Source of the DNA: a virus
Reading direction: 5' to 3' (one strand)
Virus record (IMG/VR): IMGVR_UViG_3300021400_000020
Coordinates: 32,964-96,963 of that record
DNA: 64,000 nucleotides
Shown: in pieces, positions 22,539 to 62,465 of the stretch
How positions within the stretch are numbered: position 1 is the first letter of the stretch
Layout: each line of letters begins with the position of its first letter
The notes under the pieces: generated by a model
Told to the model about the DNA's origin: nothing
Database searches by the model: none
The model's input: the letters and a program-made list of their open reading frames with translations, nothing else
Program-made: the position numbers and the translations under genes

Positions 22539-22580
22539 CAAATCCATTTTCGCACCCTCTGCGAATCTACTTTCCAAAAA

Positions 22581-22648: not shown

Positions 22649-22669
22649 TCATCAGAAAGAAAGAAATCT

Positions 22670-39495: not shown

Positions 39496-39975
39496 TCAAA
39501 CCGACAAACGCCGATAAATCGTTTTGCCTTCTTTGTTTCTGAACGCTTCAAGAACTTCATTCCTCTTTGCCGTTCTACCGTCTTGGTAGCTTACATGTAT
39601 CCAGTCATAGTCGTATTCGTTGATAATCTGCTTGACACCTATCTCTCCGTTCTTCATCATCTTCACAAGCAGGTCAAACAGAGCCTTGTTATCGGCTCTT
39701 GAATCGCTCTGGCTTCGAATGTCGGCGGCATTACCGTAGAGATGGTCACTGGTAGAAGCTCCACCAACAACCTTGTTCAACCTCGGACAACGATACCCAC
39801 AGGTGACGACAATACTTCTATTATACTTGTTACGTAGTGGCTGGAGAACTTTCCTGCATAACGTCGCAAGTTTATTCTTGACAACAACACTGGGCGTATT
39901 GTCGATACCTAACCTTTGCGCTGTAGCTGATTTTATCAGCTCCTCAAGCGTGAAATTATCACTCAGTTTCATCAT
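39496..39975 (-). CDS. endolysin, peptidase M15 (D-Ala-D-Ala carboxypeptidase-like) family
   Basis: CGYRCPRLNKVVGGASTSDHLYGNAADI ... YDWIHVSY provides the H/D/H zinc-ligand pattern of M15 peptidases. Confidence 0.8.
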   Translation of the reverse strand: MMKLSDNFTLEELIKSATAQRLGIDNTPSVVVKNKLATLCRKVLQPLRNKYNRSIVVTCGYRCPRLNKVVGGASTSDHLYGNAADIRSQSDSRADNKALFDLLVKMMKNGEIGVKQIINEYDYDWIHVSYQDGRTAKRNEVLEAFRNKEGKTIYRRLSV

Positions 39976-40865: not shown

Positions 40866-41119
40866 TGCTCTGTCAATAATTGAATAATTCCTTGTCCTAC
40901 TACGGAGCACAAGAAAGTTAATATCATTGTCCACCAACTGTGGTCTTTCTTGTACTCGACACGAAAGTAAACCACGTAAAAGATACTCATAATCACTCCC
41001 GAATGTGCGGCATTGTACCAGTTGCACGAACTCAATCCTACCACCAAACCCGCCAACATCCATGCCCAGCGAGTTTTCCACTTGAAAATTCTGCCGATAA
41101 ATTTAATAATTTCTTTCAT
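40862..41119 (-). CDS. small membrane protein (85 aa)
   Basis: Hydrophobic segments WAWMLAGLVVGLSS, VIMSIFYVVYF and WWTMILTFLCSVVGQGII. Confidence 0.5.
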   Translation of the reverse strand: MKEIIKFIGRIFKWKTRWAWMLAGLVVGLSSCNWYNAAHSGVIMSIFYVVYFRVEYKKDHSWWTMILTFLCSVVGQGIIQLLTEQ

Positions 41120-41181
41120 ATTCCTTCTTGTTATTTGGGGTTAATACTAAAATATTGATAAAAAGTCTCAATTTCCAAAAC

Positions 41182-42276
41182 CTATTCCACCGCTTTCGCG
41201 TACCTTGGAATCGAAGCGAGGTGCCATAAGCACTGAGTAAGCGATTCGATACACAGATACACAACGCCCTCGTCAAGATAATACAAGCCTTCCACCAGCT
41301 CCATGTTTATACTGAAAGGAATAGGATTTTCCAATGTGCCTTCATCAGCACCACCCTTCACAACTTGGGTGAACAACGATGTGGCAACTCTTGGATTCCA
41401 GTTGTCTTGTGCCGTATGTGTCTGCACCACCTTCCAGAGCGCATCATCATAGTAGTAACGCTCATCTTTCTTCAGCTCCTTACCAAGCATCGACTCCCAA
41501 GATGGAAAGAGTTCAATACACTCCAAAGCGGCATCATCATCTCGCTCCACCACCGTTGGCAACACCATCTTCTTTAAAGCAGCGACTACATCCTTGGCGG
41601 TTGGCTCCTTCTTCACGTAGGTAAATATCTCGTCACCGAAGGAAAGCGGTTCAGGATAGCCGTCTTGATAGTCGTATTCATGGACAGCCGCGTAAGTCTC
41701 CAAGCCTTCAATCGACAACTGATGACTGTTAGTCATGTCGTAGCACTCAGCGGCATACACCTCCAAGTCCTTCAGCATCGACCTCGCACTCGCAATCGGC
41801 ACGTTGAACAAATGACAATTCCCAAAGGAGAGATTGGTGGTTCTCTTGCCTTTCTCTTCTTCTGCGTCAAGCCTCGAAAGAATACTGGTACGTGTGGTTT
41901 TGTCTATCCAGCAGTTCTTGTCCTCATAGCGGAAGACATTGACATCCTCCGACGATCCGTAAGCCGAGTTAAGTGCGAACAACAACTTCTTAGATGCCTC
42001 AAACAGCTCATCGTCTTCTACATGCACATTGAAAGTATGGACAAGCGCATTACTGACACCTTCAAGCTCCTGAACACTACACAGCCTTCCCGACCCAATG
42101 ATGGCATCGGCAACCTCCGTGATGGTAGGCACTTCCTCTGACTTGAACTGCACACTGTCTGCTTCCCATTCTCCATCATCAGACGGGGCGACATTATAGT
42201 TCAAAGTAATATAAATCACTTGTGGACCTACACTCGTCACCATCTGACTTGGCTTCTCTGTAAATTTCTGTTTCAT
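41182..42276 (-). CDS. fibre-associated protein, DUF4376-like middle region and CBM5/12-like C-terminal motif (364 aa)
   Basis: CWIDKTTRTSILSRL...ARSMLKDLEVYAAECYDMTNSHQLSIEGLET...YDYQDGYP resembles DUF4376. YYYDDALWKVVQTHTAQDNWNPRVATSLFTQV resembles the YxxGD.V.Y.G..Y.C.Q.HTSQ..W.P....SLW motif. The ATG at 42276 lies 10 nt after the RT stop. Confidence 0.4.
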   Translation of the reverse strand: MKQKFTEKPSQMVTSVGPQVIYITLNYNVAPSDDGEWEADSVQFKSEEVPTITEVADAIIGSGRLCSVQELEGVSNALVHTFNVHVEDDELFEASKKLLFALNSAYGSSEDVNVFRYEDKNCWIDKTTRTSILSRLDAEEEKGKRTTNLSFGNCHLFNVPIASARSMLKDLEVYAAECYDMTNSHQLSIEGLETYAAVHEYDYQDGYPEPLSFGDEIFTYVKKEPTAKDVVAALKKMVLPTVVERDDDAALECIELFPSWESMLGKELKKDERYYYDDALWKVVQTHTAQDNWNPRVATSLFTQVVKGGADEGTLENPIPFSINMELVEGLYYLDEGVVYLCIESLTQCLWHLASIPRYAKAVE

Positions 42277-42286
42277 TTTTTTGATT

Positions 42287-43780
42287 TTATAAATTAAGTT
42301 TGAATACATTCTTCATGTGGATACTCTCATAGTGACCCTGCACATAGAAATACGTCCAAAAGATTTCACCCATCAACGCAATCATCTCCTTCCGATAATG
42401 ATAGGTTCGCTTCCTCCGACAAAATCCAAGATAGGAATTCACGACCTGCTCAATACGCTTGCAGTCCAGATACGTCAAATCCTTCTTTGCCTCCATCAGA
42501 CGACGGAACCCGATAGCACGCTCCTTGAATCGAGCCAGCGTCCTGTTCGAAAGATACAGTCTGCAAGGCTTGATATAAGTACCGACAAACAACACGCCAT
42601 GACTCACTGGCTGCAAGTATCTCTCTTCGTGCATCTCCAGCTGAAGATGGGTCTTGAGGAACTTTTCCATCTTCACAATCGCACCCTTCAGGAAATCGAG
42701 GTCGTCACACTGACAGACGAAATCATCCACGAACCGCTCGTAGGAGAACGAATGGTGACGGAAAAGGAAAAGCACATACATGTCGAAATACGACATCAAG
42801 AAGTTGGCAAACAACTGAGTCGTGAGATTACCGATAGGCTCACCCTTGGTTTTCTCACAACCAAACAAGGACTTGTTAGGCGATAACCGCTCCCAAAGAT
42901 GCACGGGCGAATTCAGCACACAATTCTCTTCTGGACGATGCAACACAACTGTCTTCGTGGTATGGATAAGCACGTCCCAGAACATCTCTGGCATACGCTG
43001 CATACCAAGACGAACAAGGACATCGGGAGAAACCGACTCGAAGCCCTTGCGCTCCATGCGCTTCCTCCATCGGTTGATGAACCTCTCCATGAAGTACCAC
43101 AAAACCAACTTGTCTATACTCATGAAGAAGCCTACAATATCACCCTTGAATAGCCATGCCTTACGATGATAATGCCCAGTGATACGCTCCATGCCTTCAG
43201 CACAATGTGCAACACATTTGTCTGTACCGAAACCCTTACGGCAATTGAAACTGACATTGCCCTGCGACACAAAACGCTCCTCAAACAACGGCTCTAACCG
43301 TAAGCAAATCCAATGGTGAACAATCCTGTCACGAAAGCTGGCGGCAAACACCTCCCTCGGTTTGGGATAGAGAACCATAAAGCAGGTGGATGTGCCTGGT
43401 TGATATGTCTTGCTCCACAACTCGTATGCCAAGGCGGGAATATCCTCTATGGCTTTAGACATGTACTCGATGGCTTGCTTGGAACGGAACTTGCCGTGCA
43501 TACAGTCTTTGTACGCCGCCCAAACAGAGTCAAGAAAGGCTTGCGGCACGGAGCTATAATCGTGGAACGCTGTGACCGCCCTGACAACATACGAATTATA
43601 CTTGTTGTTGTTGTTCACATTACCATTCTGGAAATTCACGTTGTACGAATTCGTGGTATTGTTCTCGGACGCGGACCAGAAGTTACTGTCTTTTTGCGAT
43701 TCTGCATCTTCGTAGCTAACACATCTTGAGAATGTGTTAGCGAATCGCCCGTTCAACGGATTATAGGATGCTCTAACCAT
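42287..43780 (-). CDS. DGR reverse transcriptase (the ORF as drawn includes the TR in frame)
   Basis: FVDDFV (YxDD box); GEPIGNLTTQLFANF (DGR-type [LIV]GxxxSQ motif with T in place of S); RDRIVHHW. It is adjacent to Avd, TR and VR. The conserved RT N-terminus starts around FLDSVWAAYKDC (near 43540). Confidence 0.9.
   Translation of the reverse strand: MVRASYNPLNGRFANTFSRCVSYEDAESQKDSNFWSASENNTTNSYNVNFQNGNVNNNNKYNSYVVRAVTAFHDYSSVPQAFLDSVWAAYKDCMHGKFRSKQAIEYMSKAIEDIPALAYELWSKTYQPGTSTCFMVLYPKPREVFAASFRDRIVHHWICLRLEPLFEERFVSQGNVSFNCRKGFGTDKCVAHCAEGMERITGHYHRKAWLFKGDIVGFFMSIDKLVLWYFMERFINRWRKRMERKGFESVSPDVLVRLGMQRMPEMFWDVLIHTTKTVVLHRPEENCVLNSPVHLWERLSPNKSLFGCEKTKGEPIGNLTTQLFANFLMSYFDMYVLFLFRHHSFSYERFVDDFVCQCDDLDFLKGAIVKMEKFLKTHLQLEMHEERYLQPVSHGVLFVGTYIKPCRLYLSNRTLARFKERAIGFRRLMEAKKDLTYLDCKRIEQVVNSYLGFCRRKRTYHYRKEMIALMGEIFWTYFYVQGHYESIHMKNVFKLNL
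43565..43689 (-). repeat. DGR template repeat (TR), 125-bp core
   Basis: Aligns to 44306-44430 at a constant offset of 741 nt. There are 11 mismatches, all at + strand T (= A in the - sense) of this copy. It encodes an Asn-rich stretch (NNTTNSYNVNFQNGNVNNNNKY). Confidence 0.9.
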
Positions 43781-43786
43781 AATTGC

Positions 43787-44215
43787 TTATGAATTACCCT
43801 GACCACTGGTATAATCTCGCAACGCTATTGCTTGCGCGACGATGCCCCGTGTCAGCTGCCTTATCTTGTTCTCTGTGTCCTTACTGATATGATTCATCTT
43901 GTGCAAAATCTTGATGTCGTCCTGAACATCTTCAACGAAGATATGGACCATATCAAGATACTCTATCCTCATGGCGGAGTCACGAGTCGCATGTGCCAAT
44001 CCTACACATTTCTTCGCCTCGCTCACAGTCAGCAAGATACTGTCTATGTAGCGAGTGAACTTCCTCGGAACTCGTTCATAAAGACATACCACGAAATACT
44101 TCAAGTTCGCAATGTCACGATAAATCGGCATCTGACGAAGTGTCCTGTGCTGACGCTTCTTCTGCTCACTGTCTTGTATCGTTGCTTGTGGAATGACTAC
44201 ACCATTTGTGCTCAT
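43787..44215 (-). CDS. avd: DGR accessory variability determinant (Avd-like)
   Basis: 142 aa. It sits between the target gene and TR-RT exactly as in canonical DGRs. The basic, helical-looking sequence is consistent with the four-helix-bundle family. The call rests mainly on position and size. Confidence 0.65.
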   Translation of the reverse strand: MSTNGVVIPQATIQDSEQKKRQHRTLRQMPIYRDIANLKYFVVCLYERVPRKFTRYIDSILLTVSEAKKCVGLAHATRDSAMRIEYLDMVHIFVEDVQDDIKILHKMNHISKDTENKIRQLTRGIVAQAIALRDYTSGQGNS

Positions 44216-44248
44216 ATCATTGTTGTTAAATCATTTGTGTATCCTTGG

Positions 44249-44270
44249 GCGACGGCTTGAATGCCGTCGC
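44249..44270. promoter_or_regulatory. GC-rich hairpin between the target stop and the avd start
   Basis: GCGACGGC [TTGAAT] GCCGTCGC, an 8-bp perfect stem about 36 nt 3' of the VR end in coding sense. Confidence 0.6.
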
Positions 44271-44290
44271 TATAAGTAAAAAGTGACACG

Positions 44291-47200
44291 CTAAAGCGTG
44301 TAGGTGAACGCTGTGACCGCCCTGACAACATACGAATTATACTTGAGGTTGCTGCCCACACTACCATTCTGGAAACCCACGTTGTACGAATACGCGGTAT
44401 TGTACTCGGACGCGGACCAGAAGTTACTGTTACCCCACCAAGTAAATATTGAAGAGGTCTCTCCTGCATCCTCCAATCTTTTCAGAATGTTCGCCATCAG
44501 TGGATAATCAACATCTTGAACTCCTTCTTGGGCTTCATTCGCGTATTGCGCACTAATAGTACCACCACTTACCTTATTACGGGAAGCATGGTACATACCG
44601 TAAATCTTGTTGACCATACCACAGGCAGGAAGCATCCAATTTTCTCGCGCATAGCGAGCGTCCAATACTTCACCTTCTTTAACAGCTGGTTCATACAACT
44701 TGCATGCGTATGCAGCAGGATAGAACAACTGATAGAATCTTGTCGAGTTTGTTGTACCTAACGCGTTTTGCAAATAGCTCAAAGCCACCATCATATCTGC
44801 AAGCTCTGTTCTATTATTAGGGCGAGAGTTTGACGAAGATCGTTCTTTTGCCCACCGCATCAACCCGTATTGCGATGGTGTTAGCAAACTCCATGACGAA
44901 GTGTCGAATGTCCCAGTAGTTGATACTGCCTTGCACATATACAAAGCACTACTATAGCGAACGACATTTCCACTCGCGTAAGTATTTTCAGTATTATAAG
45001 CAGGTGGCGTTTCTGGTAAATCATAATTTCCCCAGACATAACGAATCCAACCTGAAAGGATTTCGTTTGCTCGATCAACCATAGCCGCGGACTTTACTGC
45101 AGTAGAGAAGTCACCCGAACCACTACCAGTCGTTGCAAAAGAATGAAGAGTTACATTTCTACTATGTTCTCGGATTGCAGCTTGAATATCAGAGTTAAAG
45201 CCATTAGCATCAGTTGATGGATAAATACCCCACGGTAATGAAGCAGTGTTGTTGATAGTACCATCAGAACTTTTTAGGTTGGCATTCTCTTTCGCAACAA
45301 CATCGATAGTTCGTGTTGAACCAGCACCACCACTACCAGAAACCCGAACAACAAAGCCAACAACCGTTTTATCGTATCGGTACTCATCATCAAACGTACC
45401 GTCCGCAAAGGCGAAGTCGCCTCTTTGTGGCTTGCGGTTGAAGAAACCAATATTCCAATAAGCACTAATCGTAGTGTCATTCAGCAGCTCAGCAGTCACC
45501 TTCAGACGATAGCGGGTCGTGTCTCCAGAAGCAGCCAAACGAATGACATTGGCAATACCTGCAACATCGTCAACAAACTGCATATAGGAAGAGGCATCAA
45601 GGTCTTCCACCTCATTTCCACCGCTATCTGTCTTGACAAATCGCCACTGCAACACAGGCTTTCCATCCACAAACTTCAGATTGTTTCCTGCATCGGTAGC
45701 AACACCAAACTGAGTCTGACCTAAAGCAGTAAAATACTTCTGACCTGTGATAGACAAACGCTCAATCAGCACAGGCACATAATCGATATACAAATCATTC
45801 GACTCGCTCCGAATATTGCCATACTTGCCAAACAGATACGTCAAGTCAGACAACGAGAGATTGGCAGCCGTGTGCATCGTAATCCTACCCGTCAAAGTAC
45901 AAGACTCTAACGACGTAATCCACATCAGGAAGTCACGACGTACCGACTCCCAGAGAATATTGGTCAAGGTCAGCACCTCCAACGGAGCATTCTCTTCATG
46001 GCATTGCTCTACCAACGCACGTCCCAGACTACCTACACCGCGCAAAATCAAAGTTCTCAACTCATACGTGTGTATGACTCTGAGCGTCGTGAGGTTAGGC
46101 AAGTTGTTCAGTGTCAGATTAACCAAGCGACTGCCCAGCTCCACACTCGTCATCAGCAAACTGGATGGTAACTGAATGCCGACGATACCACCCGAAACAT
46201 TGCCGTTGCCGTCATCAATGCCGTCGCAGCCCATCGTATTGACACTACGCAAGCGAATGCAGTTCGACAAGTTCAACGTGCCACCAATCCCTGCACTACC
46301 CTCCAAGTCAAGATGCTCTATCAACGGACAGTTAAGCACAATCTCAGACGGCTTGAAAGCAGGGTTCGACGGACTCGACGGATTGGAAACGAACTCAGTC
46401 AAATGCTGAGCGGTTAGCGTGAATCGGGAAGCGGAACTGATATGAAGGTCGCCCACATTACCAAAGGAACGATAGTAATTGGCAGCGTAAAGGGCAATAG
46501 CGGTATCGACACCATCAACAGGAGAACCACCCGTCATGTCAAAGACAACAGGAACACCTGGCTTGCATCTCTGACGCATGGAGATATTCGTCTGTCCAAT
46601 ACGACCGCATGGATAGATATACTGATGCGGAACCAAACCATTGAACACAATAAGATCTCCACCGTTCAAACCAAATACGTTCTCAAGGTCTGAAAAACCG
46701 ACATTTCCAGACGACAGGCTGAAATCACCCCATTCGGCATAACTCGCCAGCAATACCAACCTGCGCTTCATGTACTGCACCTCCGCTTCTAATTGGTCAC
46801 CCATCGACTGCGTGATAGGGTCAACACCTCGCTCGGAAATGAAATGGACGGAAGCAGGGTATTCATAGCGAATACGGGCAGCCTCGTTATAGGCAACGGC
46901 AGGAATGTATTGCTGAATCTTGAAGAAGTATTTCCACATGCAACCCCACGGCGTAGTCTTCTGATTGTTGCTCAATGGCAAATCATCCGACACACTAACA
47001 AGCCCGCTCATGGTGGTAAAGATACGCTGGAACATACTGCGCAACTCGCCATTGCCCTCATACAACTCTTCTGTCAAATTGAAAAGCACATTGGCATTAC
47101 CACGATAGAGACTTTCAGTCGAGCCTTCAGCGCAAGGATGCAGACGGTCGATATAGTACGGCTTGGTCTGGAAACCGCTATTATCAGTTTTGAAAATAGT

Positions 47201-50200
47201 ATCTTGGTCGTCCTGATGCAACTCCCACTTCCACGTCCACGTACTCTTGTCAGCAGAAGCATCACCATACGGAACAAGGCAATAGTAAGTATTCTTCGAA
47301 CAGTTATCAGAACCGCAAATCATCCAGTTCGTGAAGCAATAATGGAACTTCAGACTATCTACATTGATGATATTGCCAATCTTACTACGAGCATCTTCAA
47401 CAACAGCTGCAATAAAACCTGCATTCATCGCCTCGAAATTACCAGGATGACTGACATAGGCATTGCGATAGATACTACCAACAGCGGTCAAGTCACATTC
47501 CTCCACAACTTCATTGGTTTCATCCCAACCATAATCAACCCACTTGCCTTCAAAGAAGTCATAGCGCATCAACTTGTAAGAACCTGCGCCTTCTGTCCAC
47601 CAATAAAGGTAGTTGACATCATTGGCAGCTGCACTCGCCTCGAACTGCGTCTTCGTACCAGAAAAATATTTGATACGAGGGTTGTGCTTATAAAGGAAAT
47701 TGACAAACTGCTTGATGTGGTTCAGAATCGTAGAAGAAGGTACTTCTACCTCATTACCATCAATCGTGATTGTCTGAGCGACGAACTTGTCAAGGTCAAG
47801 ACTGGTATAGCCATTATAGATAAAGCCAGCAGCTTCTCCATCTTCTATCTCGTAACTGATTCTGTCACTCTGCCAAGGCACACGGAAATCGGTCAAAGGA
47901 AGGTCGTTATCGGCTCCTTCCAACATCACGAAATTAGGATGCTTCTTCTTGTTGAATCCCCAAGTACCGTCGTCCATCTTGCCAGGACCGAAAGTACAAG
48001 GTCCTTGATAAACAGCGGTGTCACCTTCTTGCAAGAAATACAAGAACACATTCTGACACTTCGCCACACGTGCGCCAGCGGTCTGCACCTGCATCACATT
48101 CCTTCCGACGATGGCTTGATGCAAATCGTTGTAGAGGTTACAAGCACCCATCAGGTGACTCTGCATCGAGGATGCATAGTTGATTTTTGCGACGAGCTTT
48201 TGAGCGTATGGCACACCGTTCATCAACTTATACTGAGGACCACGATACATACCATTGCCATCAACCCAGCCGTCAGGGACAAAGGCATAGCCATTCCTTG
48301 CAGTAGATGGCGTGAAGTCACTGTAGTCTGGATGAATCTTCGTAATTTCCACCCAGATACCATGCGGACAAAGCTCAGCGGTCTGCTCCAGCGTCACAGT
48401 CTCTGCGTCAAGCCCGTTCTTCGAAAGTTCCTTATCGTAAGCCTTCGCCACGTCCTTCAACTTGCTTTGCAGATTCCAATAGTAGTAAGTCTTGGCTGTG
48501 GAACCCTGACCTGTCTGCTCAACCGAAGCGGTTTCCCTACAAAGACTTCCGCTATAGTCTAACAACTCGTTACCATTGTCGTCGTATTGATGGATTTCCC
48601 ACCAACCCGTTTTGGTAGCAGTGTCACCCTTTCGTATCTGACCACCAGCACAGTGCCATATCAGACAGTTCTTCTTCCTCTCCTGACACTTGGTAAGACT
48701 AATCAAGCCTGTATTGCCAAGAAGGTCGTTCTCATCTCGCACACTGACCTTCTGAGCCGCCGTAGGCATCGTACTTCGATAGTTCTGCAAGATGTCGGCT
48801 GAATCAAGGGCTTGGTTCTTATACACACGCAAAGCAAAGATGTCAATATCAGCACCAGCCTGACCTATCACAATGGATGAACCACGACTATACCATGTGC
48901 CGGCAGTGTCCTTGTCAAAAATGAACTCACGATTGATACAACCATTGATAAAAACACGACACAAGGCAAGCGTACTGGCATTATTGTCGGTCGATGCTCG
49001 CAAAGCGGAAACGATATTGATAACGACATGAGTGCGCTCACCTTCCTGCCAAGAGAAATTCTGCTCCAGCTCGGTACGGTTCGATGAAGTCCAGACACTA
49101 CCCTCCAATGGGCGCATCTTCAAACCGATAAAGCCGTCACCGTATCCTTCGCACGCCTGAAAAACAGGGTCGTCCTCATTAGTGACATTCCGAACCTTGA
49201 AATCCAACTCCAACGTGACATTGGCAGCGGCATTGTTGGCGAAAGGACTCAACCAGTCATAGTTAATAGTCAGTAACTGACCAGCAAGCACACGAAGGAC
49301 ACGCTGATTATCTTCATCCTGAACCCAAGCGTCGTTGATAGCTCCGAAATTTGACCATGTGGATGGAACAAGGACATTGCCAACGGCATTCACAATGGAA
49401 AGTGGCGTACCCTCGGCATTACTTCGAGTCGAAGGATTCAAATAGAAGTCTGCACCATTCGTAGGAGCGAAGTTCTCCTTGTTGTCAACAGTTATCACTT
49501 CACCGCTGGCGAAAGTATAAGTCGTTCCTCGGTCAATGATATAGGCATAGAAATAGGCATAAAGGGTTAAGTCGGTGCTCTCAATACCCACACTACCATT
49601 CAAGTGATAAGGAGTACCAGGAGTTGCCAAGACTTCCATATTCAGATAGTCCTGAGTCTGCGAATTGTTGCGGATGGCGAAACTGACAGCGATGGAATCC
49701 CTACCAGGCGCATAGACAGCGTAGGAACAAATCTCGGTCTGCACGTAGTTCTCCGTCGTCTTGATGAGATTCTGGATGAGCAAGCGAGGAGTGTCCGTCA
49801 CATTACTGGTCACAACCATCAACTGATTGATGACATGATCCGTAGAGTTCACGTCTTCTTGCGTACCGTCGGAATAGGTCAGCCATGCCTCAATCGTGAT
49901 GATACCACCCGACAAGAAACCATAATATTGGGAAGCATCAGCAACGGTGTCTGTGTCCTTCCAAGTGGAAAGATAATTGGTATATTCATTCGCACCAATG
50001 GAAAAGACATGCTCGTACTCACGGGTTCCGCCTGTAATCCTGACATGTAACTTTCTCGCTACACTTCCCTTGAGGTGATAATTGAGAGGAATCACAGTCG
50101 GATTCGTCAGAGGCGCATTGTAGTCACCTGCAAATTCCAAACCCACCTCAGTATAGGTGACGGATGAGAAGGTGACATAACCCTGTGTGTTCATGGTTTG

Positions 50201-50731
50201 CATGTTGCCAGTCATATCCTCATAGTCAAAAGCAGCACGCAACTGCACGACAACAGTTTCATCTTGCTTCAGATACGGTCCGATATTAACAGGATAATAG
50301 GAACTTGGATGCTCGTCATACTCCAACGAAGGAACATCTAAAACAGCCTTGTCCTCACCATTGACCCTGACCGTCAAACGTCCATTGGCACCGTAGTTAC
50401 GAGGAACGACTCCATCCATGTAGGCACCAGTGAACCTGACTCCAATCCAACAGTCCTTGGAGCTGACAACAATCGGGAGAGTAGGGTCTTGCTCCACCAT
50501 CAAGTAAGCCTTGTATTCAGCACCTGACAAGTCAATGGTCAGACGAACCGTTCCTTCCGGATCTGGAGTCTGTGGCGTATTTCCATTCAAGGAAATGCCC
50601 ATGACACTGTTCTGATTCTGCCTAACAGCACGGACCAACCTAACAAACTCTTGAGCTGTTAGCTTACCCTCTGGGTCGTCAGGATGATTGTCGATTTTCG
50701 ACAACAAGTCTGAAATATCTTCTTTCGCCAT
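44291..50731 (-). CDS. DGR target protein: giant tail-fibre / receptor-binding-like protein (2146 aa) with a C-terminal variable domain
   Basis: An uninterrupted 6.4-kb ORF within the virion block. The C-terminus ...WWGNSNFWSASEYNTAYSYNVGFQNGSVGSNLKYNSYVVRAVTAFTYTL carries the VR and resembles DUF1566 / C-type-lectin-fold DGR variable regions. Confidence 0.85.
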   Translation of the reverse strand: MAKEDISDLLSKIDNHPDDPEGKLTAQEFVRLVRAVRQNQNSVMGISLNGNTPQTPDPEGTVRLTIDLSGAEYKAYLMVEQDPTLPIVVSSKDCWIGVRFTGAYMDGVVPRNYGANGRLTVRVNGEDKAVLDVPSLEYDEHPSSYYPVNIGPYLKQDETVVVQLRAAFDYEDMTGNMQTMNTQGYVTFSSVTYTEVGLEFAGDYNAPLTNPTVIPLNYHLKGSVARKLHVRITGGTREYEHVFSIGANEYTNYLSTWKDTDTVADASQYYGFLSGGIITIEAWLTYSDGTQEDVNSTDHVINQLMVVTSNVTDTPRLLIQNLIKTTENYVQTEICSYAVYAPGRDSIAVSFAIRNNSQTQDYLNMEVLATPGTPYHLNGSVGIESTDLTLYAYFYAYIIDRGTTYTFASGEVITVDNKENFAPTNGADFYLNPSTRSNAEGTPLSIVNAVGNVLVPSTWSNFGAINDAWVQDEDNQRVLRVLAGQLLTINYDWLSPFANNAAANVTLELDFKVRNVTNEDDPVFQACEGYGDGFIGLKMRPLEGSVWTSSNRTELEQNFSWQEGERTHVVINIVSALRASTDNNASTLALCRVFINGCINREFIFDKDTAGTWYSRGSSIVIGQAGADIDIFALRVYKNQALDSADILQNYRSTMPTAAQKVSVRDENDLLGNTGLISLTKCQERKKNCLIWHCAGGQIRKGDTATKTGWWEIHQYDDNGNELLDYSGSLCRETASVEQTGQGSTAKTYYYWNLQSKLKDVAKAYDKELSKNGLDAETVTLEQTAELCPHGIWVEITKIHPDYSDFTPSTARNGYAFVPDGWVDGNGMYRGPQYKLMNGVPYAQKLVAKINYASSMQSHLMGACNLYNDLHQAIVGRNVMQVQTAGARVAKCQNVFLYFLQEGDTAVYQGPCTFGPGKMDDGTWGFNKKKHPNFVMLEGADNDLPLTDFRVPWQSDRISYEIEDGEAAGFIYNGYTSLDLDKFVAQTITIDGNEVEVPSSTILNHIKQFVNFLYKHNPRIKYFSGTKTQFEASAAANDVNYLYWWTEGAGSYKLMRYDFFEGKWVDYGWDETNEVVEECDLTAVGSIYRNAYVSHPGNFEAMNAGFIAAVVEDARSKIGNIINVDSLKFHYCFTNWMICGSDNCSKNTYYCLVPYGDASADKSTWTWKWELHQDDQDTIFKTDNSGFQTKPYYIDRLHPCAEGSTESLYRGNANVLFNLTEELYEGNGELRSMFQRIFTTMSGLVSVSDDLPLSNNQKTTPWGCMWKYFFKIQQYIPAVAYNEAARIRYEYPASVHFISERGVDPITQSMGDQLEAEVQYMKRRLVLLASYAEWGDFSLSSGNVGFSDLENVFGLNGGDLIVFNGLVPHQYIYPCGRIGQTNISMRQRCKPGVPVVFDMTGGSPVDGVDTAIALYAANYYRSFGNVGDLHISSASRFTLTAQHLTEFVSNPSSPSNPAFKPSEIVLNCPLIEHLDLEGSAGIGGTLNLSNCIRLRSVNTMGCDGIDDGNGNVSGGIVGIQLPSSLLMTSVELGSRLVNLTLNNLPNLTTLRVIHTYELRTLILRGVGSLGRALVEQCHEENAPLEVLTLTNILWESVRRDFLMWITSLESCTLTGRITMHTAANLSLSDLTYLFGKYGNIRSESNDLYIDYVPVLIERLSITGQKYFTALGQTQFGVATDAGNNLKFVDGKPVLQWRFVKTDSGGNEVEDLDASSYMQFVDDVAGIANVIRLAASGDTTRYRLKVTAELLNDTTISAYWNIGFFNRKPQRGDFAFADGTFDDEYRYDKTVVGFVVRVSGSGGAGSTRTIDVVAKENANLKSSDGTINNTASLPWGIYPSTDANGFNSDIQAAIREHSRNVTLHSFATTGSGSGDFSTAVKSAAMVDRANEILSGWIRYVWGNYDLPETPPAYNTENTYASGNVVRYSSALYMCKAVSTTGTFDTSSWSLLTPSQYGLMRWAKERSSSNSRPNNRTELADMMVALSYLQNALGTTNSTRFYQLFYPAAYACKLYEPAVKEGEVLDARYARENWMLPACGMVNKIYGMYHASRNKVSGGTISAQYANEAQEGVQDVDYPLMANILKRLEDAGETSSIFTWWGNSNFWSASEYNTAYSYNVGFQNGSVGSNLKYNSYVVRAVTAFTYTL
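44306..44430 (-). repeat. DGR variable repeat (VR)
   Basis: Partner of the TR. It differs only at TR-adenine positions, in 8 codons. The 3' 40 nt (coding sense, 44306-44345) are identical to the TR and are GC-rich, as expected for an IMH. Confidence 0.9.
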
Positions 50732-50749
50732 AATTGTGTATTTTTGAAA

Positions 50750-51190
50750 TTAAAATGTAAACGGAAAAGTATAAGGGAACCCGACGCTTCCCGTTTCTCC
50801 ACGAGATGCAATCAAAGTCGAACCTAAGTAAATCCTCTGCAAGACACCGACATTATTCGTAACAGCATACCAGCTCGCAGGGTTTTTCTCGGTCAACGCA
50901 GAGAACTCGGATTCTGTCAAACGAATAACGCCACCACCCGAAGGGGACGAAGAGGAAGAAACCTCCTCCACCCACTCGCCACCAAGCCAACGATAAGTCT
51001 TCTGCTCGGCAACGACATAACAGGTACAGCCCTCCGTCAGTCGCTCAATAGGGATATTGTCTCGGTCAGCCAGTGTGGAGACTTCCTTGGAACCACCCTT
51101 GCCATAGAGACTGCTATGTGTCGGAAACCTGTCCTCTGTCGTAAACGGCGCAATCATCGCCGCTACATTTGTTCCTGGAATATTTGCCAT
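50750..51190 (-). CDS. small fibre-module protein (146 aa)
   Basis: TLADRDNIPIERLTEGCTCYVVAEQKTYRWLGGEW resembles the RDxIPxxxRxxGMxVxV...YxLxGG motif common at tail-fibre N-termini. Confidence 0.45.
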   Translation of the reverse strand: MANIPGTNVAAMIAPFTTEDRFPTHSSLYGKGGSKEVSTLADRDNIPIERLTEGCTCYVVAEQKTYRWLGGEWVEEVSSSSSPSGGGVIRLTESEFSALTEKNPASWYAVTNNVGVLQRIYLGSTLIASRGETGSVGFPYTFPFTF

Positions 51191-52163: not shown

Positions 52164-55100
52164 TTATTGCGTGATGTTAGCCACCAAATTCAATCCTACA
52201 CTTTGCGAACCGACGGCAAAAGCCGATAGGTTCTGGTCGGCGTCGCCATTTATTGTCAGGTCTATTCCTTTATAAGCGGTAACTGCATAAGCCTTGTCAG
52301 CGTCAACCATGCAAGCGTAATAGCCAAGTTCATCGGTATCGCACTGAAATTCATCTTCTCCATTGTCAAAGGTAATCCGTGCTCCAGCAACTGCACTGTT
52401 CGACCTGTCAATCAGTCTTCCATAGACATAGATAACAGTATCACTACGAGAAGCAGAACGCTCAATCTCCCAATAGATACACTCCTTGCCGTTGAACTCT
52501 CCAAGACAGCATTGAAGAATGGCTATCTGGGACGTGCCAACAGAAGTGTAATCAATGCGACTGTATTGTGGAGAGACTGCGATAGGGTCTGTGTCTTCAA
52601 CCTCATGGCTTGTATTACCAAACGAAACACCTCGACTCCTAACCTCGACCAAGAATCGGCTCTTTATATTCAACGCATACAGTAAATTGTTAGAGATATA
52701 TGGGAAAAGATAGAACTTCTTTCCTATACACTGCCGTAAATCCTCACTCGTCATACCAGGAAACTCAACCAAATCCCTATCATTAAGGGCACTACACTCA
52801 ATATGAACTACCCCATCAGAATCAGAATACAAGGAAGGAAGATATAACGTGTGAGAGGTGGAAGCTGTGAATTCAATGATACTGCCCCAGCGCAAAGGAT
52901 TCAAAAACCAAACCTCACCTTCTGAAAGAACCTTCCTTTGTATCAAGTTGTTCAGTACGCCTGCAATCGTGCAGTTATTCATCTCGGCATTGCCTTCCTC
53001 ATCTACCTTGAAATTGCCGTTGATAGTCGTATAGCCCTCAAGACGGATATTGTCAGCCTTAATCAACACACCTCCCTTGATAAAGTTGTTGCCGTATTCA
53101 TCCTCGACGCGCTGACCTTTTGAATCCAGCTCATACTGAATATATGTGCTAATTTGAGAAGCAATCGTAAACTGACCATTCTTAATATAACCAGTAAACG
53201 TCGAAGCAAAGCCTTCCGTAGTCACAAAACCGCTCGTCAATGATTCTACATCAGATTCTGTTACATAATGATTCGAATTCAAATGATCACGAATAGAACT
53301 TAACAAAGAATCGGAATTGACATAGTGGTTCGAAACATACTGGAGAATGTAGTTTTGAGTGAGAGATAGTAGAGAATTTCGCGTCATTGGAGTACCAGCA
53401 ATACTATAAAGATGCAATGTGCCACCACTCACACGCAACGTGATACCCTGCGCATAATCAAAATTCAACTCGATACTATCTTCAGCAAAACCGTCAGTTC
53501 CTATATACTCGAAGGACTGCGTAATATCTTTCCAGGACTGAGCAGAATCGGTGGATTCCTTGGATTTGACTCGAACCTTTGCGTTTTCTGAGACAGATTC
53601 AAAAACACCTTTGAACCTAAAAGTAATGGCTTCACCATCATATTCTTTAGCTGTTGGAAGTAAACCAAACTTCAACTCGATATATTCTGGATATACGGTC
53701 TCCTTAATACACAGGCAAGGCAAACCGCCAAAGATTTCTTCGTAGATATAACCTTCGGTCTCTTCTCCGTCGGCAGACCCATTGCCATTGTAATAATCAA
53801 AACTTCTATAGAGATTCGAGAATATCTTGTTGCCTGACAGGGAAGAAACACGCATCTGAATAGCGTCAGCCGTTTGCCTGATTTCAGACGTGCTACTCTC
53901 CACGACTTCAAGAAGAGTGCCGACCGACGTTATCTTTTCGAGATAGAAAACCGTACCATCACAACGAATAGTGAAACTCCTACTATAGTCAAGCATGACA
54001 GGCACCACAACCTCGGTCAAGCCCTCCGTATCAGGGAATACAAACAAAGGGTCATCCTGCAACTCGGAATAGAGCTGGGCAACACCCGAAGACTTGTGAT
54101 AGGTAACACGAAGATGAATCTGCTCACCGTCAAGCTGACTCGCACTCGGCAAGAGAGTGAAGCGGACATTGATACCAACCTGGTCGTCGTCAATCATCAA
54201 GACAGACTTGCCTTGGAAAGTGGTCTCTTGAATCAACCAAGTGTCATGCTCAGGATAATCCGCTTCAAACGTATAACCTCCAACGAAAGGAGCAACAGGC
54301 GTAAGGAATATTTCCTTGGCAAGCTCCTTCTCAATCGTACTGCTGACCGTCGAGACGATACTATTGCTGAGCAACTCAATCGCCGCCGTATTGCTGGCAA
54401 CATCGTTGCCAAGTTGTTGCAGACTCTCCACCTGAAGGGCAATCTCGTGGGCTGTCTGTGAGATGGAAGACTGGTATTCGCTGATAATATTGGTAGTATC
54501 ATCGGACAAGGAACAGTCACGCAAGAAGACACCAGCATACTCTATGCGGATGAAAAGTTGCGTAAAGCCCTGATGCGAACTGCTATTCTCGTAGGACCAA
54601 CTGCTCTTGAAGCGAAGGGTGTTATACTTCGTGCTGTCTGCCACAAGAGACTGGACATAGAGAGTTCTCGTCGTACCATCATGGAACTTCTCACCAACAA
54701 TAATCTTCGGAAGGACGGTTGCAGAGTTGAAGTTAGTAATGACAGTGCTACACTTATACGTCAATCTGAAGACAATAGGACGACTCGCGTGCTCAATCGG
54801 TTCAATCACATCAGGAACGACAGCCCTCGATATGCCATCATCGCCACTTAATGCCTGAATATCGATAACGGTTCTACCACCATCTGTGGCAGCGGTAACA
54901 TGACTACTCGATGTGTCCTCCTTGGAATCATCGTACTTGTGGCAATGGTAAAGCCCCTCAGAGAACAACGGGTCAAGTATATAATCGTTGGCATCCGTCG
55001 CGTTGATGTCTCGCGTACTGCTGACAGTGCTCGTAATGCCGTCTGCTGTTTGCTCTACGGCTGACAACCTACCATTGAATCCGTTGACAGTCGAAGAAAT

Positions 55101-58100
55101 ACTATTGACAGTCTGCTTGATTTCTGAACGTGCAGACTGAGCAAACGCAATGGCATTCGCACTGACACAGAAGTCGGTCAGATAAACCTGTGCAGCACTA
55201 CCACTTGTCGCACCCTGGACACCAATATAAAGGTTCTCCCTTCCACATAGGAAAGTGGTACGCAAATAGACATAGGTCGTTGATTGGGAAAGTTCAAAAC
55301 GCGCTATCTCAGTCGTGGTTTCAGCCGTATTGCCAACGGCATCACCATTGCCTTTATGAAGAACAAGCAACGCACTGGCAGAAAGACATCTGACACCAAT
55401 ACGAATATAAGTCGGAAAATTGGTAATATCCGCACCGACACTACTGTAGTCCATCTTCGGCTTGATACCACGCAACGAACCATTATCAGCATGGATATTG
55501 ATGATATACTTGTTACCCGACGCTATCGATTGCACATGGTTGCCTGAATCCTCTGTGTCGGACAACCACTTGGAATAGCCGTAGTCGCCACCCTCACCAT
55601 ACTCAAACAAAGGGTCAACAACATAGTCGTTGGCTTCCTTGGCAGATATGTTTCGGGTTTCTTCAACCGTACTGGTAATGGAATCGCTCAACTGCTGAAT
55701 GGAGGAGGACTGATTTTGTAAACTACTATCAACATGAGATTTCCACCCAGAGTAAGTTTGCAAGAAAGAGGAAAAAGCTATCAAATTTCCATTAGCATCA
55801 AAAGCACTCACAATCCCTTGAATAGACTGAGCGGTTTGCTCCAACTGGGAAGAGAAACGGTTAATCAGAGCTTCATTCAAGTTCAGACTAACAACAAAAC
55901 CAAAAATCCTAACGGCACGTCCGTTGGTGTAAATAGAGAAGTCACCCTGTCCGTCCCAGTTGAAAGAGGTGGCAACCTTGTTGTATTTGCCATCTGCCTT
56001 GATGCTCAGAGAGGTATCAACAGAACCCAGCACCAACCGAACGGATGTGTCCGTGCTATTGCCAACAGGCTCCGCCATCGCATAGAACGAGACAGCAACC
56101 GTCTGAGGAATAATCTGCTGGTTCTCATCTCGCTCAAAAGTCGGCAAATTACGCATGTCAGCATTGAACTGAACAATACCGCGACTGTGCTCGTAGTCAC
56201 CACAAATCTCAACGTACTTTCGACCGTTAGACTCACCCATACGGGTGTAATAAGCCGTACCACCATCACTAAGAATATTAGTGCTATCACCAATGAGATA
56301 GGCATTTCCATCGCTCTCATCGATACGGAAGAACTGACCGCCAGCATAAATATTCCACTTGTCCCAACCATCAGCGAAAGCATTGTTGGAAATGAAGCCT
56401 TCGTCGGCTATCAAGTCCTCACGCAAGGCACTCACAGAGCTGCGGACAACACCATCCAACACCTGAAACAAAGTGCCTAAGTCCTGATACTCGTTATTGA
56501 TTTTAACGATGAACTTACCCTTCAACCAGGCATTGTCGGAATAAAGTCCATAACCGTTAGGCTGCTCCAAACCGTTCCAAAAAGCATCATCGATACCATC
56601 CAAGCAACCCAAGCGACAACGAAGATTGCCACCACCTGCTTTGGAATTGCAGCCGTCCATAACGTCGATGCGAGGAACACCGTCCTCGGTAGCACTGATA
56701 TAGATATAGTTCTGACGCTTCACATATTGAGTGTTACCCATCAGCACACACTCATCATTCACCTGCGGTACAGAACCAGCATCCAGCATGGAGGTCTCGC
56801 CTGTCACGGGGTCAGTGTATTCAATCGGAGCACCAAACTCGCTACAAGGCACAAGAATGTCATAGGCGGAAGAAAACTCAACCAAGACTTGTTGTTCCTG
56901 CTCATCTAACACGGGCTGCCACTCGTCGTCAAGGAGATATAAAGGGCTTGGGGTTTCAGCATTGTCACTATTGGTGAAAGCGGAAGTGTCGGGATATGCC
57001 ACTTCCACCCAATAGTATTGCATGGCATCCACATCTGGAAGGTCAGCGTCATCATCGTCCGTACCCATATTATACCTGCCATTATTCCAACGCTGGCAAC
57101 GCATTAGGTCGTGACGCACAAAGTTATTGGTATCTTCAAATGTAATTTTGTAGTATTCTACATTGTTCGCAAGTACACGCTGCACTGCCTTGACCTTTCC
57201 TTGAGCTGCACTGACAATCAATATACCACCCACGGAACGAATCTTCTGAATAACCAGCTCAAAGATATACATGATTCTGCGCACGGTAAGCGTGTCGAGT
57301 TCCATGTTCCAGCCAGTGTGTTCATCAAACCAAATCTTCGCACCATGACCGTTGAAACCACTCTGGAAAGATGCACCTACCTTCGTTTCTGGATCTGCAC
57401 TGACCAATTCAGAAAAGACACCGTTCACAATCGTAGTGAGCTTGCGAACAAACAAATTGTCCAACTCCCCGCCCCATTCGTCATTGTTGCCCTTGACAAA
57501 TCGACCTCCCACACCTTGAACACCACCTTCAAAACCAAGTTGAGAGCCAAGGAAAAGGGAACCAAGAATTTCAGCTACCGCACTTGCGTTAATGCCTAAC
57601 TTCTCGGTAATCCTGACATTGGCATGGGTTTCAACACCCGTATGACTCTCGTCGCCTGAATGGGATTCAACACCTCTATGCGTCTCTGCAGACTCATGAA
57701 ACTCCTGACCCTTGAAAGTGGCAGTTCCCGTCTTGAAGACGACATTGCCGGAATGGGACTCGTCGTTCTGAAAATATACCTGACCTTCATGTACTTCCGT
57801 CCCACCATGCTCCTCCGCATCATGGAACGTAGCCAGCCCACTCACGTCAATGCCTGACTGAAAACTAATCTTTCCTGCCGCCGTGTCATTATGGACCTTA
57901 CTCAAATACAAGTCATCAAGCTCTTCCAGCTTCTTCTTGATATACAATTTGATGTAGCCAGCCGTCGCTAACTGACTGTCATTCATGCCTGCATCATCCT
58001 CCAAGCCGCGAGCCATCGTCAACAAGGTAGATAACTCAACACCATCAAAAACGAACTTCTTGCCATTGCCAATCGTCAAGCCACCTAAAGCCATCAGCAT

Positions 58101-58667
58101 ACCACCAACAGACAAGGAACCGACAATCTCAAGCATCTTGACAGGATAATTGAAGACAAGGTTGCCTTCGACATCCAAGGAGAAATACTCGTTGCTCGCC
58201 TCTCGCTCTCCCCTATCCGTACCTAACAATCCAGAATCATAGGAAATGACACGCTCACCCTCCGAAGGAGCAGACACCTGACCAATACGGACGTACCAGA
58301 AATCGGCATCCTCGACAGCCGATTCATCCGCCAACTCCCCTTGCTCGTTCAGGATACGACCATAGACATCGTACAGGTTGGGAGAATAAATCACCAAAGC
58401 CGTTCTGCCTACCTTCGTCAGACGGGCATAGATATACAGCATCTTATTGGCATGGGCTGACGAGAAGGCAGTGGGATAGGCATAGAGAAGCCAACGGTCG
58501 TAACTGCCGTCTGCAGAGAAGCCAATGGGCGTTCCTGTATAAACAAGAATTTTTGTACCTTGCTGCAAGGAAACACTCACCTTCTCGGAGTCTCCCAGGG
58601 CATTCTCTGAGAAACTCAAAGCAAAAGGCGCAATGTAGTAAGTGTTGTTATTCTGAGTGCGAATCAT
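52164..58667 (-). CDS. second giant tail-fibre-like protein (2167 aa)
   Basis: Repeated Q-T-A-x-x-I / S-T-V modules typical of phage host-specificity proteins (IRQTADAIQMRVSSL, VEQTADGITSTVSS). The C-terminus has a CarboxypepD_reg-like segment (VYGRLIDRSNSAVAGARITF). Confidence 0.7.
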   Translation of the reverse strand: MIRTQNNNTYYIAPFALSFSENALGDSEKVSVSLQQGTKILVYTGTPIGFSADGSYDRWLLYAYPTAFSSAHANKMLYIYARLTKVGRTALVIYSPNLYDVYGRILNEQGELADESAVEDADFWYVRIGQVSAPSEGERVISYDSGLLGTDRGEREASNEYFSLDVEGNLVFNYPVKMLEIVGSLSVGGMLMALGGLTIGNGKKFVFDGVELSTLLTMARGLEDDAGMNDSQLATAGYIKLYIKKKLEELDDLYLSKVHNDTAAGKISFQSGIDVSGLATFHDAEEHGGTEVHEGQVYFQNDESHSGNVVFKTGTATFKGQEFHESAETHRGVESHSGDESHTGVETHANVRITEKLGINASAVAEILGSLFLGSQLGFEGGVQGVGGRFVKGNNDEWGGELDNLFVRKLTTIVNGVFSELVSADPETKVGASFQSGFNGHGAKIWFDEHTGWNMELDTLTVRRIMYIFELVIQKIRSVGGILIVSAAQGKVKAVQRVLANNVEYYKITFEDTNNFVRHDLMRCQRWNNGRYNMGTDDDDADLPDVDAMQYYWVEVAYPDTSAFTNSDNAETPSPLYLLDDEWQPVLDEQEQQVLVEFSSAYDILVPCSEFGAPIEYTDPVTGETSMLDAGSVPQVNDECVLMGNTQYVKRQNYIYISATEDGVPRIDVMDGCNSKAGGGNLRCRLGCLDGIDDAFWNGLEQPNGYGLYSDNAWLKGKFIVKINNEYQDLGTLFQVLDGVVRSSVSALREDLIADEGFISNNAFADGWDKWNIYAGGQFFRIDESDGNAYLIGDSTNILSDGGTAYYTRMGESNGRKYVEICGDYEHSRGIVQFNADMRNLPTFERDENQQIIPQTVAVSFYAMAEPVGNSTDTSVRLVLGSVDTSLSIKADGKYNKVATSFNWDGQGDFSIYTNGRAVRIFGFVVSLNLNEALINRFSSQLEQTAQSIQGIVSAFDANGNLIAFSSFLQTYSGWKSHVDSSLQNQSSSIQQLSDSITSTVEETRNISAKEANDYVVDPLFEYGEGGDYGYSKWLSDTEDSGNHVQSIASGNKYIINIHADNGSLRGIKPKMDYSSVGADITNFPTYIRIGVRCLSASALLVLHKGNGDAVGNTAETTTEIARFELSQSTTYVYLRTTFLCGRENLYIGVQGATSGSAAQVYLTDFCVSANAIAFAQSARSEIKQTVNSISSTVNGFNGRLSAVEQTADGITSTVSSTRDINATDANDYILDPLFSEGLYHCHKYDDSKEDTSSSHVTAATDGGRTVIDIQALSGDDGISRAVVPDVIEPIEHASRPIVFRLTYKCSTVITNFNSATVLPKIIVGEKFHDGTTRTLYVQSLVADSTKYNTLRFKSSWSYENSSSHQGFTQLFIRIEYAGVFLRDCSLSDDTTNIISEYQSSISQTAHEIALQVESLQQLGNDVASNTAAIELLSNSIVSTVSSTIEKELAKEIFLTPVAPFVGGYTFEADYPEHDTWLIQETTFQGKSVLMIDDDQVGINVRFTLLPSASQLDGEQIHLRVTYHKSSGVAQLYSELQDDPLFVFPDTEGLTEVVVPVMLDYSRSFTIRCDGTVFYLEKITSVGTLLEVVESSTSEIRQTADAIQMRVSSLSGNKIFSNLYRSFDYYNGNGSADGEETEGYIYEEIFGGLPCLCIKETVYPEYIELKFGLLPTAKEYDGEAITFRFKGVFESVSENAKVRVKSKESTDSAQSWKDITQSFEYIGTDGFAEDSIELNFDYAQGITLRVSGGTLHLYSIAGTPMTRNSLLSLTQNYILQYVSNHYVNSDSLLSSIRDHLNSNHYVTESDVESLTSGFVTTEGFASTFTGYIKNGQFTIASQISTYIQYELDSKGQRVEDEYGNNFIKGGVLIKADNIRLEGYTTINGNFKVDEEGNAEMNNCTIAGVLNNLIQRKVLSEGEVWFLNPLRWGSIIEFTASTSHTLYLPSLYSDSDGVVHIECSALNDRDLVEFPGMTSEDLRQCIGKKFYLFPYISNNLLYALNIKSRFLVEVRSRGVSFGNTSHEVEDTDPIAVSPQYSRIDYTSVGTSQIAILQCCLGEFNGKECIYWEIERSASRSDTVIYVYGRLIDRSNSAVAGARITFDNGEDEFQCDTDELGYYACMVDADKAYAVTAYKGIDLTINGDADQNLSAFAVGSQSVGLNLVANITQ

Positions 58668-62374: not shown

Positions 62375-62465
62375 GTCCGTGATAATTTTTCGCAAAGGTA
62401 TCTACCCAAAGAAAAACTATCACGGACATTTCCACAACACACATAAAATCACGAATTTATGTGCA

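Follow-up and report, generated by a model that had tools for sequence, protein, structure and literature searches.

We analysed a window of 64,000 nucleotides (nt) of viral DNA, corresponding to positions 32,964 to 96,963 of the IMG/VR record IMGVR_UViG_3300021400_000020. Its minus strand carries, between positions 42287 and 50731 of the window, a cassette that we interpret as a diversity-generating retroelement (DGR). The first component is the target gene (44291–50731), an open reading frame (ORF) of 2146 amino acids (aa) encoding a giant tail-associated protein with a C-terminal Lcl_C/DUF1566-like domain. Its ~42 final codons form the variable repeat (VR, 44306–44430), which we delimited with a repeat finder and by comparing alleles. 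Past the VR lie two hairpins, H1 (44286–44301) and H2 (44249–44270), which show covariation across 8 lineages. They are followed by the gene of an accessory protein (43787–44215, 142 aa), an Avd-like four-helix bundle according to its predicted structure, and by the ORF of a DGR-type reverse transcriptase (RT, 42287–43780, 497 aa). The template repeat (TR, 43565–43689) lies in frame within the RT ORF. A conserved leader element, ATAATCCGTTGAACGGGCG (43746–43764), encodes the peptide YNPLNGR and is found 57 nt upstream of the TR. All these components are on the minus strand. The ORF coordinates and the counts given in a preliminary description of this DNA were all reproduced. The target, Avd and RT genes are also present, and identical, on ~97-kb contigs of a sheep-rumen assembly.

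The repeat finder returned a single direct-repeat family in positions 42000–51000, consisting of the TR and the VR (125 nt, 91% identity, spacing 741). We compared them base by base in the coding sense and found 11 mismatches, 11 out of 11 at an adenine of the TR (7 A>G, 3 A>T and 1 A>C). Since the TR holds 40 A in 125 nt, the probability that all mismatches fall on this base by chance is 0.32^11, i.e. ~4e-6. The mismatches hit 8 codons, of which 7 are AAY codons (N>Y, Y, G, S, G, S and L) and the last produces a T>A change. This confirms in full what the preliminary description had reported for this pair, offset included. The homology between the repeats ends sharply at both sides, and the VR stops 12 nt ahead of the stop codon of the target. 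The TR has 13 AAY codons, 37 adenines in its mutable part and 23 variable codons; the latter allow about 10^22 peptide variants.

A comparison with related contigs revealed that the VR differs between members of the same phage population. The IMG/VR contig 3300031867_000517 (L001; other contigs are labelled in the same way) encodes an RT 95% identical to that of the window and has a TR identical to the window TR at 125/125 positions. Its VR has 12 differences from its own TR, all at adenines, and 15 from the window VR, again exclusively at TR-adenine sites. Several other metagenomes supplied contigs with an identical Avd. With L001 and the window included, there are four VR alleles at the DNA level: one in the window and L005, one in L001, one shared by L006, L007, L010 and L011, and one in L008. 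Non-adenine differences between TR and VR amount to 0 out of 45 across the four alleles. Hence, substitutions at non-adenine positions of the TR are absent from the window genome and from the three other alleles of its population. The TR is unchanged in 5 out of 5 TR-containing sequences of this phage population, despite their differing VRs. At the protein level, the targets clustered at >=90% identity and the C-terminal fragments include at least 8 VR peptide alleles. The heterogeneity of the VR across related genomes, which had been put forward as a check on this element, was therefore observed with an invariant TR. The existence of many VR alleles with the same TR, and with adenine-only differences, is a comparative signature of ongoing mutagenic retrohoming. 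We had also considered the identity of the window and L001 TRs as a sign of selection in its own right, and dropped it: the whole block from Avd through the TR to the N-terminal half of the RT is 97–100% identical between the two. The C-terminal half of the RT and the gene downstream are 84–90% identical.

Other differences between these sequences concern the target and the length of the repeats. The alignment of the window with L001 is a mosaic, with 100% identity down to position 45430 and then only 55–65% over ~650 nt (44730–45380). The divergent stretch belongs to the target and immediately precedes the part that encodes the Lcl_C-like domain. As far as can be told from the alignment, this pattern suggests that the distal part of the target was exchanged by recombination, without involvement of the DGR. 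When VR and TR differ in length, the difference falls exactly at an (AAC)n run, which in the window TR is at 43603–43614 and has four units in both repeats. For example, in L036, whose target is >=90% identical to that of the window, the TR (10020–10190) has (AAC)5 and the VR (9270–9432) has seven NNC units, a gain of 6 nt. The VR of the phage BS-TP1, described below, is 3 nt longer than its TR, and L035 (14876–15010 and 15711–15842) is also among the length-differing pairs. These gaps could result either from slippage of the RT on the AAC repeat, which would diversify the length of the VR, or from contraction of the TR after the last homing event. Finally, many metagenome contigs of this family, such as L012, L013, L010, L011 and L020, stop inside or just past the TR or the VR. 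The DGR cassettes of this clade are thus systematically fragmented in public assemblies, because assemblers break at the repeat.

The last 25 nt of the VR (44306–44330, TGTTGTCAGGGCGGTCACAGCGTTC) are GC-rich and invariant in all alleles, including the three adenines that they contain. The preliminary description had assigned 40 invariant nt to this end of the repeat. The final 40 nt of TR and VR are indeed identical in the window genome, but relatives mutate adenines up to position 99 out of 125. Hence, the invariant segment resembling an initiation of mutagenic homing (IMH) site is 25 nt long, not 40. H1 (ACACGC-TTTA-GCGTGT) begins 4 nt past the VR, spans the stop codon of the target and is followed by CACTTTTTAC, which contains a T5 run. 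H2 (GCGACGGC-ATTCAA-GCCGTCGC) begins 35 nt past the VR and has an 8-bp GC-rich stem. Among 8 diverged lineages, there are compensatory changes in 5/6 pairs of H1 and in 5/8 pairs of H2, and in the latter 100% of the alignment cells are paired. When the two hairpins are taken jointly, 10 out of 14 pairs show double changes and 97% of the cells are paired, a result matched by 0 out of 500 shuffles; it collapses in the slid controls. Neither hairpin is present 3′ of the TR. In BPP-1, a GC-rich hairpin/cruciform located 4–34 bp 3′ of the VR is required for homing, and such hairpins are common in phage DGRs, where they have 7–10-bp stems and GRNA tetraloops (Guo et al. 2011, PMC3240598).

The RT matches phrog_1423 (E 7e-56). 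When we searched it against all PDB sequences, its sole match with E<0.01 was the RT of the BPP-1 DGR (bRT, 8ub7_A, E 3e-25). With a relaxed threshold, UG15-type, Cas6-RT-Cas1, group II, retron and Drt2 RTs were retrieved only at E 0.014–1 (0.098 for group II RTs, 0.12 or worse for retron RTs), and the scores with the NCBIfam group II and retron models were far under their cut-offs. Among solved structures, the protein is thus closest to the BPP-1 RT, with far weaker matches to retron and group II RTs, the alternatives that had been named for it. The two motifs noticed earlier are present, IGNLTTQ at residue 316 and FVDD at residue 350. In the alignment to bRT, PIGNLTTQLFAN is matched with PIGSLTSQLFAN, FVDD with YMDD, and IGNLTTQ with IGSLTSQ (TQ for SQ). 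Relative to bRT, there are ~60 extra residues between positions 236 and 312. Judged by its sequence, this is a DGR-type RT with intact motifs.

The accessory protein has no match in Pfam, in NCBIfam or among PDB sequences, even at E up to 5–10. We found 26 homologues, none with a Pfam domain and always encoded between the target and the RT. An AlphaFold2 (AF2) model made with the alignment of these homologues is a helical bundle with a predicted local distance difference test (pLDDT) of 87. Foldseek matched it to 2gsc, 2rld (PF05635-type), 4dwl Avd and the Avd chains of 8ub7 (TMt 0.75–0.89, root-mean-square deviation 1.4–2.8). The protein is basic (isoelectric point of 9.45). The model suggests that it has the Avd fold and may work like Avd, yet it fails the sequence test of the family. 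The earlier label of Avd-like protein thus holds for the fold but not for family hidden Markov models (HMMs). In several related cassettes, an extra ORF of 44–68 aa lies between the target and Avd and overlaps the Avd start (L013 9910–10053, L014 4050–4184, L018 1245–1403, L019 81–287 and L023 190–348). In the window, the spacer between the two genes has 75 nt only and contains both hairpins.

The target matches phrog_24896, a family of unknown function (E 7e-66), and has 26.9% identity over 2184 aa with gp27 of BS-TP1, a published DGR target. The preliminary description had suggested a DUF1566/CLec C-terminus. The match of Lcl_C (DUF1566, PF07603) on the last 200 aa is sub-threshold for the target itself (17.7 bits, for a Pfam gathering cut-off of 34.9), but it recurs in 9/10 members of the target family (best E 6e-6), and the homologue P0031 (50% identity to the target) scores 39.5 bits, over the cut-off. 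The assignment of the window target is thus by transitive homology via P0031 only. The alignment of the tips shows W(M/L)LP... and the pattern xWS.(S/T)E...F..G....K....VR.V.AF, with hypervariable columns in the VR, which lies at the C-terminal end of the coding sequence. By homology, the tip is probably a divergent Lcl_C/DUF1566 domain of the CLec2 type. The DGR rewrites the last ~33 codons of this tail-associated protein. A profile of the tip had only a marginal match in PDB, 8q4e 'HbP1' (41 VR-like residues, E 0.007); a literature search for this name returned unrelated HBP1 papers only. Proteins P0032, P0033 and P0034 (257–264 aa, on contigs of 12–26 kb) are stand-alone proteins with an Lcl_C-like C-terminal domain and hypervariable VR columns. 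The diversified tip is thus a module found on very different scaffolds, since it is also present on short ~260-aa proteins.

A search with the Avd homologues retrieved this cassette from 8 or more additional lineages, with a target of 2100–2360 aa, sometimes the small extra ORF, then Avd and TR/RT. The TR/VR mismatches are adenine-specific in 8 related lineages, with at most 1–2 non-A differences, located at the repeat edges. Contigs carrying relatives of the RT with 50–59% identity were binned to Bacteroidaceae, Prevotella, Paludibacteraceae and other Bacteroidales metagenome-assembled genomes from rumen and gut, which indirectly suggests a rumen Bacteroidales host. A megablast of the cassette against the INPHARED phages gave no match, and we found no annotation of the window element in public sources. 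The N-terminal 1244 aa of the target match BS-TP1 (PQ571274), a cultured temperate phage of Bacteroides salyersiae. In this phage, genes annotated tape measure, baseplate hub and tail fibre are followed by those of gp27 (2187 aa), gp26 ('four helix bundle protein'), gp25 (RT) and gp24 (DUF4376 protein), and the TR/VR pair is adenine-specific as well. The two elements share a syntenic ~2100–2200-aa target, a four-helix-bundle protein, an RT with an in-frame TR and a DUF4376-like gene. The 26.9% identity of the targets spans their full length; it is 44% for the RT, 30% for the downstream gene and just 19% for Avd. The element analysed here differs by its origin in sheep, goat and cattle rumen metagenomes. 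The DGR of BS-TP1 has been published, and DGRs of Bacteroidaceae temperate phages are reported to target unannotated ~2000-aa tail-related proteins (Gut Microbes 2025, PMC12694917). Hence, this kind of system, giant target included, is already known.

The resemblance to the DGR of BPP-1 concerns most of the cassette. The order of components is the same (target, mtd in BPP-1, then avd, TR and RT, brt in BPP-1), a tail-protein gene carries the VR at its 3′ end and the mismatches are restricted to adenines. BPP-1 provides the closest solved RT, with conserved PIGxLT(S/T)QLFAN and (Y/F)xDD motifs, and an accessory protein with the Avd fold (predicted here). In both, a GC-rich invariant VR 3′ end is followed by a hairpin. 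In contrast, the target here has 2146 aa and an Lcl_C/DUF1566-type tip, not one of the Mtd type, the accessory protein escapes the Avd/PF05635 HMMs, the TR is within the RT ORF without a non-coding spacer, the hairpin loops are not GRNA, and there is no IMH/IMH* sequence difference within the repeat. CLec2/DUF1566-type targets were classed as category d by Wu et al. 2018 and exemplified by the Legionella DGR (PMC5758913). The window element resembles them in that its VR overlaps the weak DUF1566/Lcl_C match and follows the consensus xW(S)S(T)E..N..NV.F..G.....K....VR.V.AF. However, the domain here ends a giant phage protein rather than a bacterial surface lipoprotein, and its Pfam score is under the cut-off.

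The preliminary description had placed the TR in a spacer between Avd and the RT. We found instead that it is in frame inside the 497-aa RT ORF, whose ATG is 7 nt past the Avd stop codon, and that its phase is that of the VR in the target. The ORF comprises a leader with YNPLNGR (residues 1–30), the TR-encoded part (31–72) and a DGR-type RT core (73–497); residue 17 of bRT aligns to residue 85. Across lineages the order is a leader with (Y/H)NP(L/M)NGR, a variable linker, the TR peptide, a junction, and the RT helix (S)VWEAYxDCxxGK. In every lineage examined, the start of the ORF is close to the Avd stop, from 14 nt ahead of it to 16 nt past it; in two lineages the start and stop codons overlap as ATGA. 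The linker between leader and TR has seven lengths and the junction between TR and RT has six, all multiples of 3. There were at least 11 such in-frame length changes in the leader and the junction, at least 7 of which are in lineages found via Avd/target homology, and thus unbiased for the RT frame (P about 5e-4). No ATG, GTG or TTG is conserved across lineages in the interval from the TR to the first conserved RT helix. Because the frame is kept through indels, the start adjoins the Avd stop and there is no conserved later start, translation of the RT through the TR is the likely situation. The RT would then probably carry a TR-encoded Asn-rich peptide at its N-terminus. Since the TR is within the RT coding sequence, the mRNA of the RT is also the template RNA. 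Furthermore, RT-coding sequence directly follows the TR, leaving no non-coding spacer like that of BPP-1. RNAalifold on 224 nt covering the TR 3′ end and the RT 5′ coding sequence in 7 lineages gave a covariation term of +1.84 with 2/28 compensatory pairs, and a search of Rfam with positions 41000–46000 gave no match.

The N-terminal extension of the RT could also be an annotation artefact, with the RT starting after the TR and the TR being non-coding as in BPP-1. The TR would look translated simply because a copied coding sequence has no stop codons. This possibility would explain why the variability of codon positions is only weakly periodic in the 30 codons of the leader (0.40/0.275/0.40, against 0.27/0.23/0.57 in the RT proper), and why an in-frame Asn-rich TR-like peptide starts 65 of the best 150 RT cluster representatives, little above the 1/3 expected by chance. 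It also fits the leader motif ATAATCCNNTNAAYGGGCG: across 13 lineages its Leu and Arg codons vary, yet AAT and GGG never change at their wobble base, which suggests that the element acts as RNA or DNA and not as a peptide. On the other hand, an artefact does not account for an ORF start that, in all lineages, adjoins the Avd stop or overlaps with it, for length changes that are all multiples of 3, including the frame-unbiased ones, or for the lack of a conserved start codon ahead of the helix aligned to bRT residue 17. We thus regard the artefact as improbable and retain a translated TR. The frozen wobble bases suggest that the leader motif is under an added constraint at the nucleotide level. 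A candidate 4-bp hairpin in the leader fits G-C, G-U and A-U variants, with support that is not statistically significant. The leader element occurs once in the window. In IMG/VR, the motif has 20 exact matches, and an in-frame TR and RT come after 9 of them; the phage contigs concerned are 8–119 kb long. An NG(R/C/P) motif is found upstream of the TR-like peptide in 19 of the 43 representatives with >=25 residues ahead of it. Going by these matches, the TR-in-RT arrangement is widespread. The 'group 3' cassette architecture of DiGReF (Schillinger et al. 2012, PMC3521204) records an overlap of the TR and RT annotations only, whereas here the conservation of the frame through many indels and the leader motif argue for a real coding overlap. 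We found no paper examining this overlap beyond that study. A broader proposal, that in this clade of Bacteroidales phage DGRs the TR is translated within the RT gene together with a functional leader motif, possibly with (AAC)n length slippage, is tentative.

We conclude that the cassette is a complete, active DGR of a ~97-kb rumen Bacteroidales phage, with a probability of roughly 0.93. This draws on the anatomy of the element, the adenine-only differences, the natural turnover of the VR, the affinity of the RT, the predicted Avd-like fold and the conserved 3′ hairpins. By the mechanism of BPP-1, the avd-TR-RT transcript would be bound by a complex of RT and Avd, and the TR would be reverse-transcribed with random misincorporation opposite adenines. 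The cDNA would then replace the VR, i.e. mutagenic retrohoming. The direction and the 3′ boundary of this replacement would be set by the invariant GC-rich end of the VR and by the downstream hairpin(s), which are absent after the TR. The tip of a tail-associated protein would thereby acquire an altered ligand-binding surface. The payoff is most likely changed virion binding and host receptor tropism, by analogy with known systems. Several observations weigh against this interpretation. The diversity of the VR was observed between assemblies, not within one sample. The hairpin loops (3–6 nt) differ from the GRNA tetraloops seen in the BPP-1 group, H1 and its T-run could simply be the terminator of the target gene, and the region 3′ of the TR yielded no conserved RNA structure resembling Sp. 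The AF2 model of the last 200 aa of the target (14-sequence alignment) is poor, with pLDDT 48, and its Lcl_C score is sub-threshold. Lastly, the grounds for receptor binding by the target are gene position and analogy alone. A change of receptor specificity is the least supported step of the mechanism, for a target without functional annotation.

A fossil or chance repeat, in which a duplication of the 3′ end decays without retrohoming, could have accounted for the window alone, since a single genome cannot show activity. This is refuted by the multiple VR alleles with an identical TR; the adenine-only mismatches, given their probability by chance, and the intact RT motifs also run counter to it, and we consider it extremely improbable. 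The nature of the target leaves more room for discussion. The DGR could be active on a virion-surface adhesin for non-host ligands, such as mucus, glycans or other cells, or on another structural protein; its diversification would then leave the host range unchanged. The target is without Pfam or functional PHROG annotation, while the tail-fibre PHROG match in this region is on a separate protein of 2167 aa. The authors of the BS-TP1 study name the homologue only a 'potential tail-related protein' (PMC12694917), and phage DGRs acting on non-fibre adhesin-like proteins have been described (tentaclins, PMC10743442). However, the target gene is in the tail-fibre module, directly ahead of the lysis genes, its BS-TP1 homologue likewise follows the tape measure, baseplate hub and tail fibre genes, and tropism switching classically involves a tail protein with a CLec-type VR at its C-terminus. 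We therefore find this alternative to be rather unlikely, and favour tropism switching.

On the minus strand, the gene order is protease/capsid-like gene, 2167-aa protein, two small genes, target, Avd, RT, 375-aa gene, holin-like small ORFs and M15 endolysin (39496–39975, minus strand), with the target placed after the tail-fibre genes and before those for lysis. The 2167-aa tail-fibre-like protein upstream (52164–58667, minus strand) matches phrog_33450, tail fiber (E 1e-38). The preliminary description presented it as a neighbouring fibre without a VR. The tail-fibre match and the missing VR were borne out; no second VR turned up anywhere in the window when it was scanned with the non-adenine positions of the TR alone. 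The idea that this protein is a VR-less paralogue of the target was ruled out by BLASTP between the two (E 0.24). The 375-aa gene downstream (41182–42309, minus strand), introduced as DUF4376/CBM-like, has only a weak match to CBM_5_12 and is syntenic with BS-TP1 gp24, the gene annotated DUF4376 with which it shares 30% identity. A third giant ORF (4717–11994, minus strand, 2425 aa) has a weak tape-measure PHROG match at residues 833–1004 (E 1e-8), and the phage thus encodes three proteins of more than 2100 aa within 64 kb. The head protease/capsid-like ORF of 522 aa (60827–62395, minus strand) matches phrog_53, head maturation protease (E 1e-33), and has a weak match to phrog_10, major head protein; it may be a protease-capsid fusion. 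A 620-aa DNA methyltransferase (22478–24340, phrog_116, E 6e-75) is encoded in the plus-strand early/replication region. There are no tRNA genes anywhere in the window.

The cassette type, the target class and the giant size of the target have already been described; the element itself is new and unannotated. Hence, our findings leave the general picture of the nature and role of DGRs unchanged. They document natural DGR activity in a rumen phage, for which independent metagenomes yield a single TR and many VR alleles, and link an uncultured clade of ~100-kb phages to a cultured relative, BS-TP1, where the predictions are testable. They also indicate that an Avd missed by standard HMMs leads to under-calling by DGR finders, and that a TR inside the RT removes the non-coding spacer needed by the BPP-1 priming model. 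If the tentative proposal of a TR translated within the RT gene behind a functional leader motif is true, one RNA would be at the same time mRNA, template and, without a non-coding spacer, priming scaffold. The leader motif might then make the RT, as it is translated, capture the template on its own RNA (cis-preference), or substitute for the RNA contacts of avd and Sp in BPP-1. Slippage on (AAC)n would let the DGR vary the length of the VR as well as its sequence, as in the +6 nt of L036 and the +3 nt of BS-TP1.

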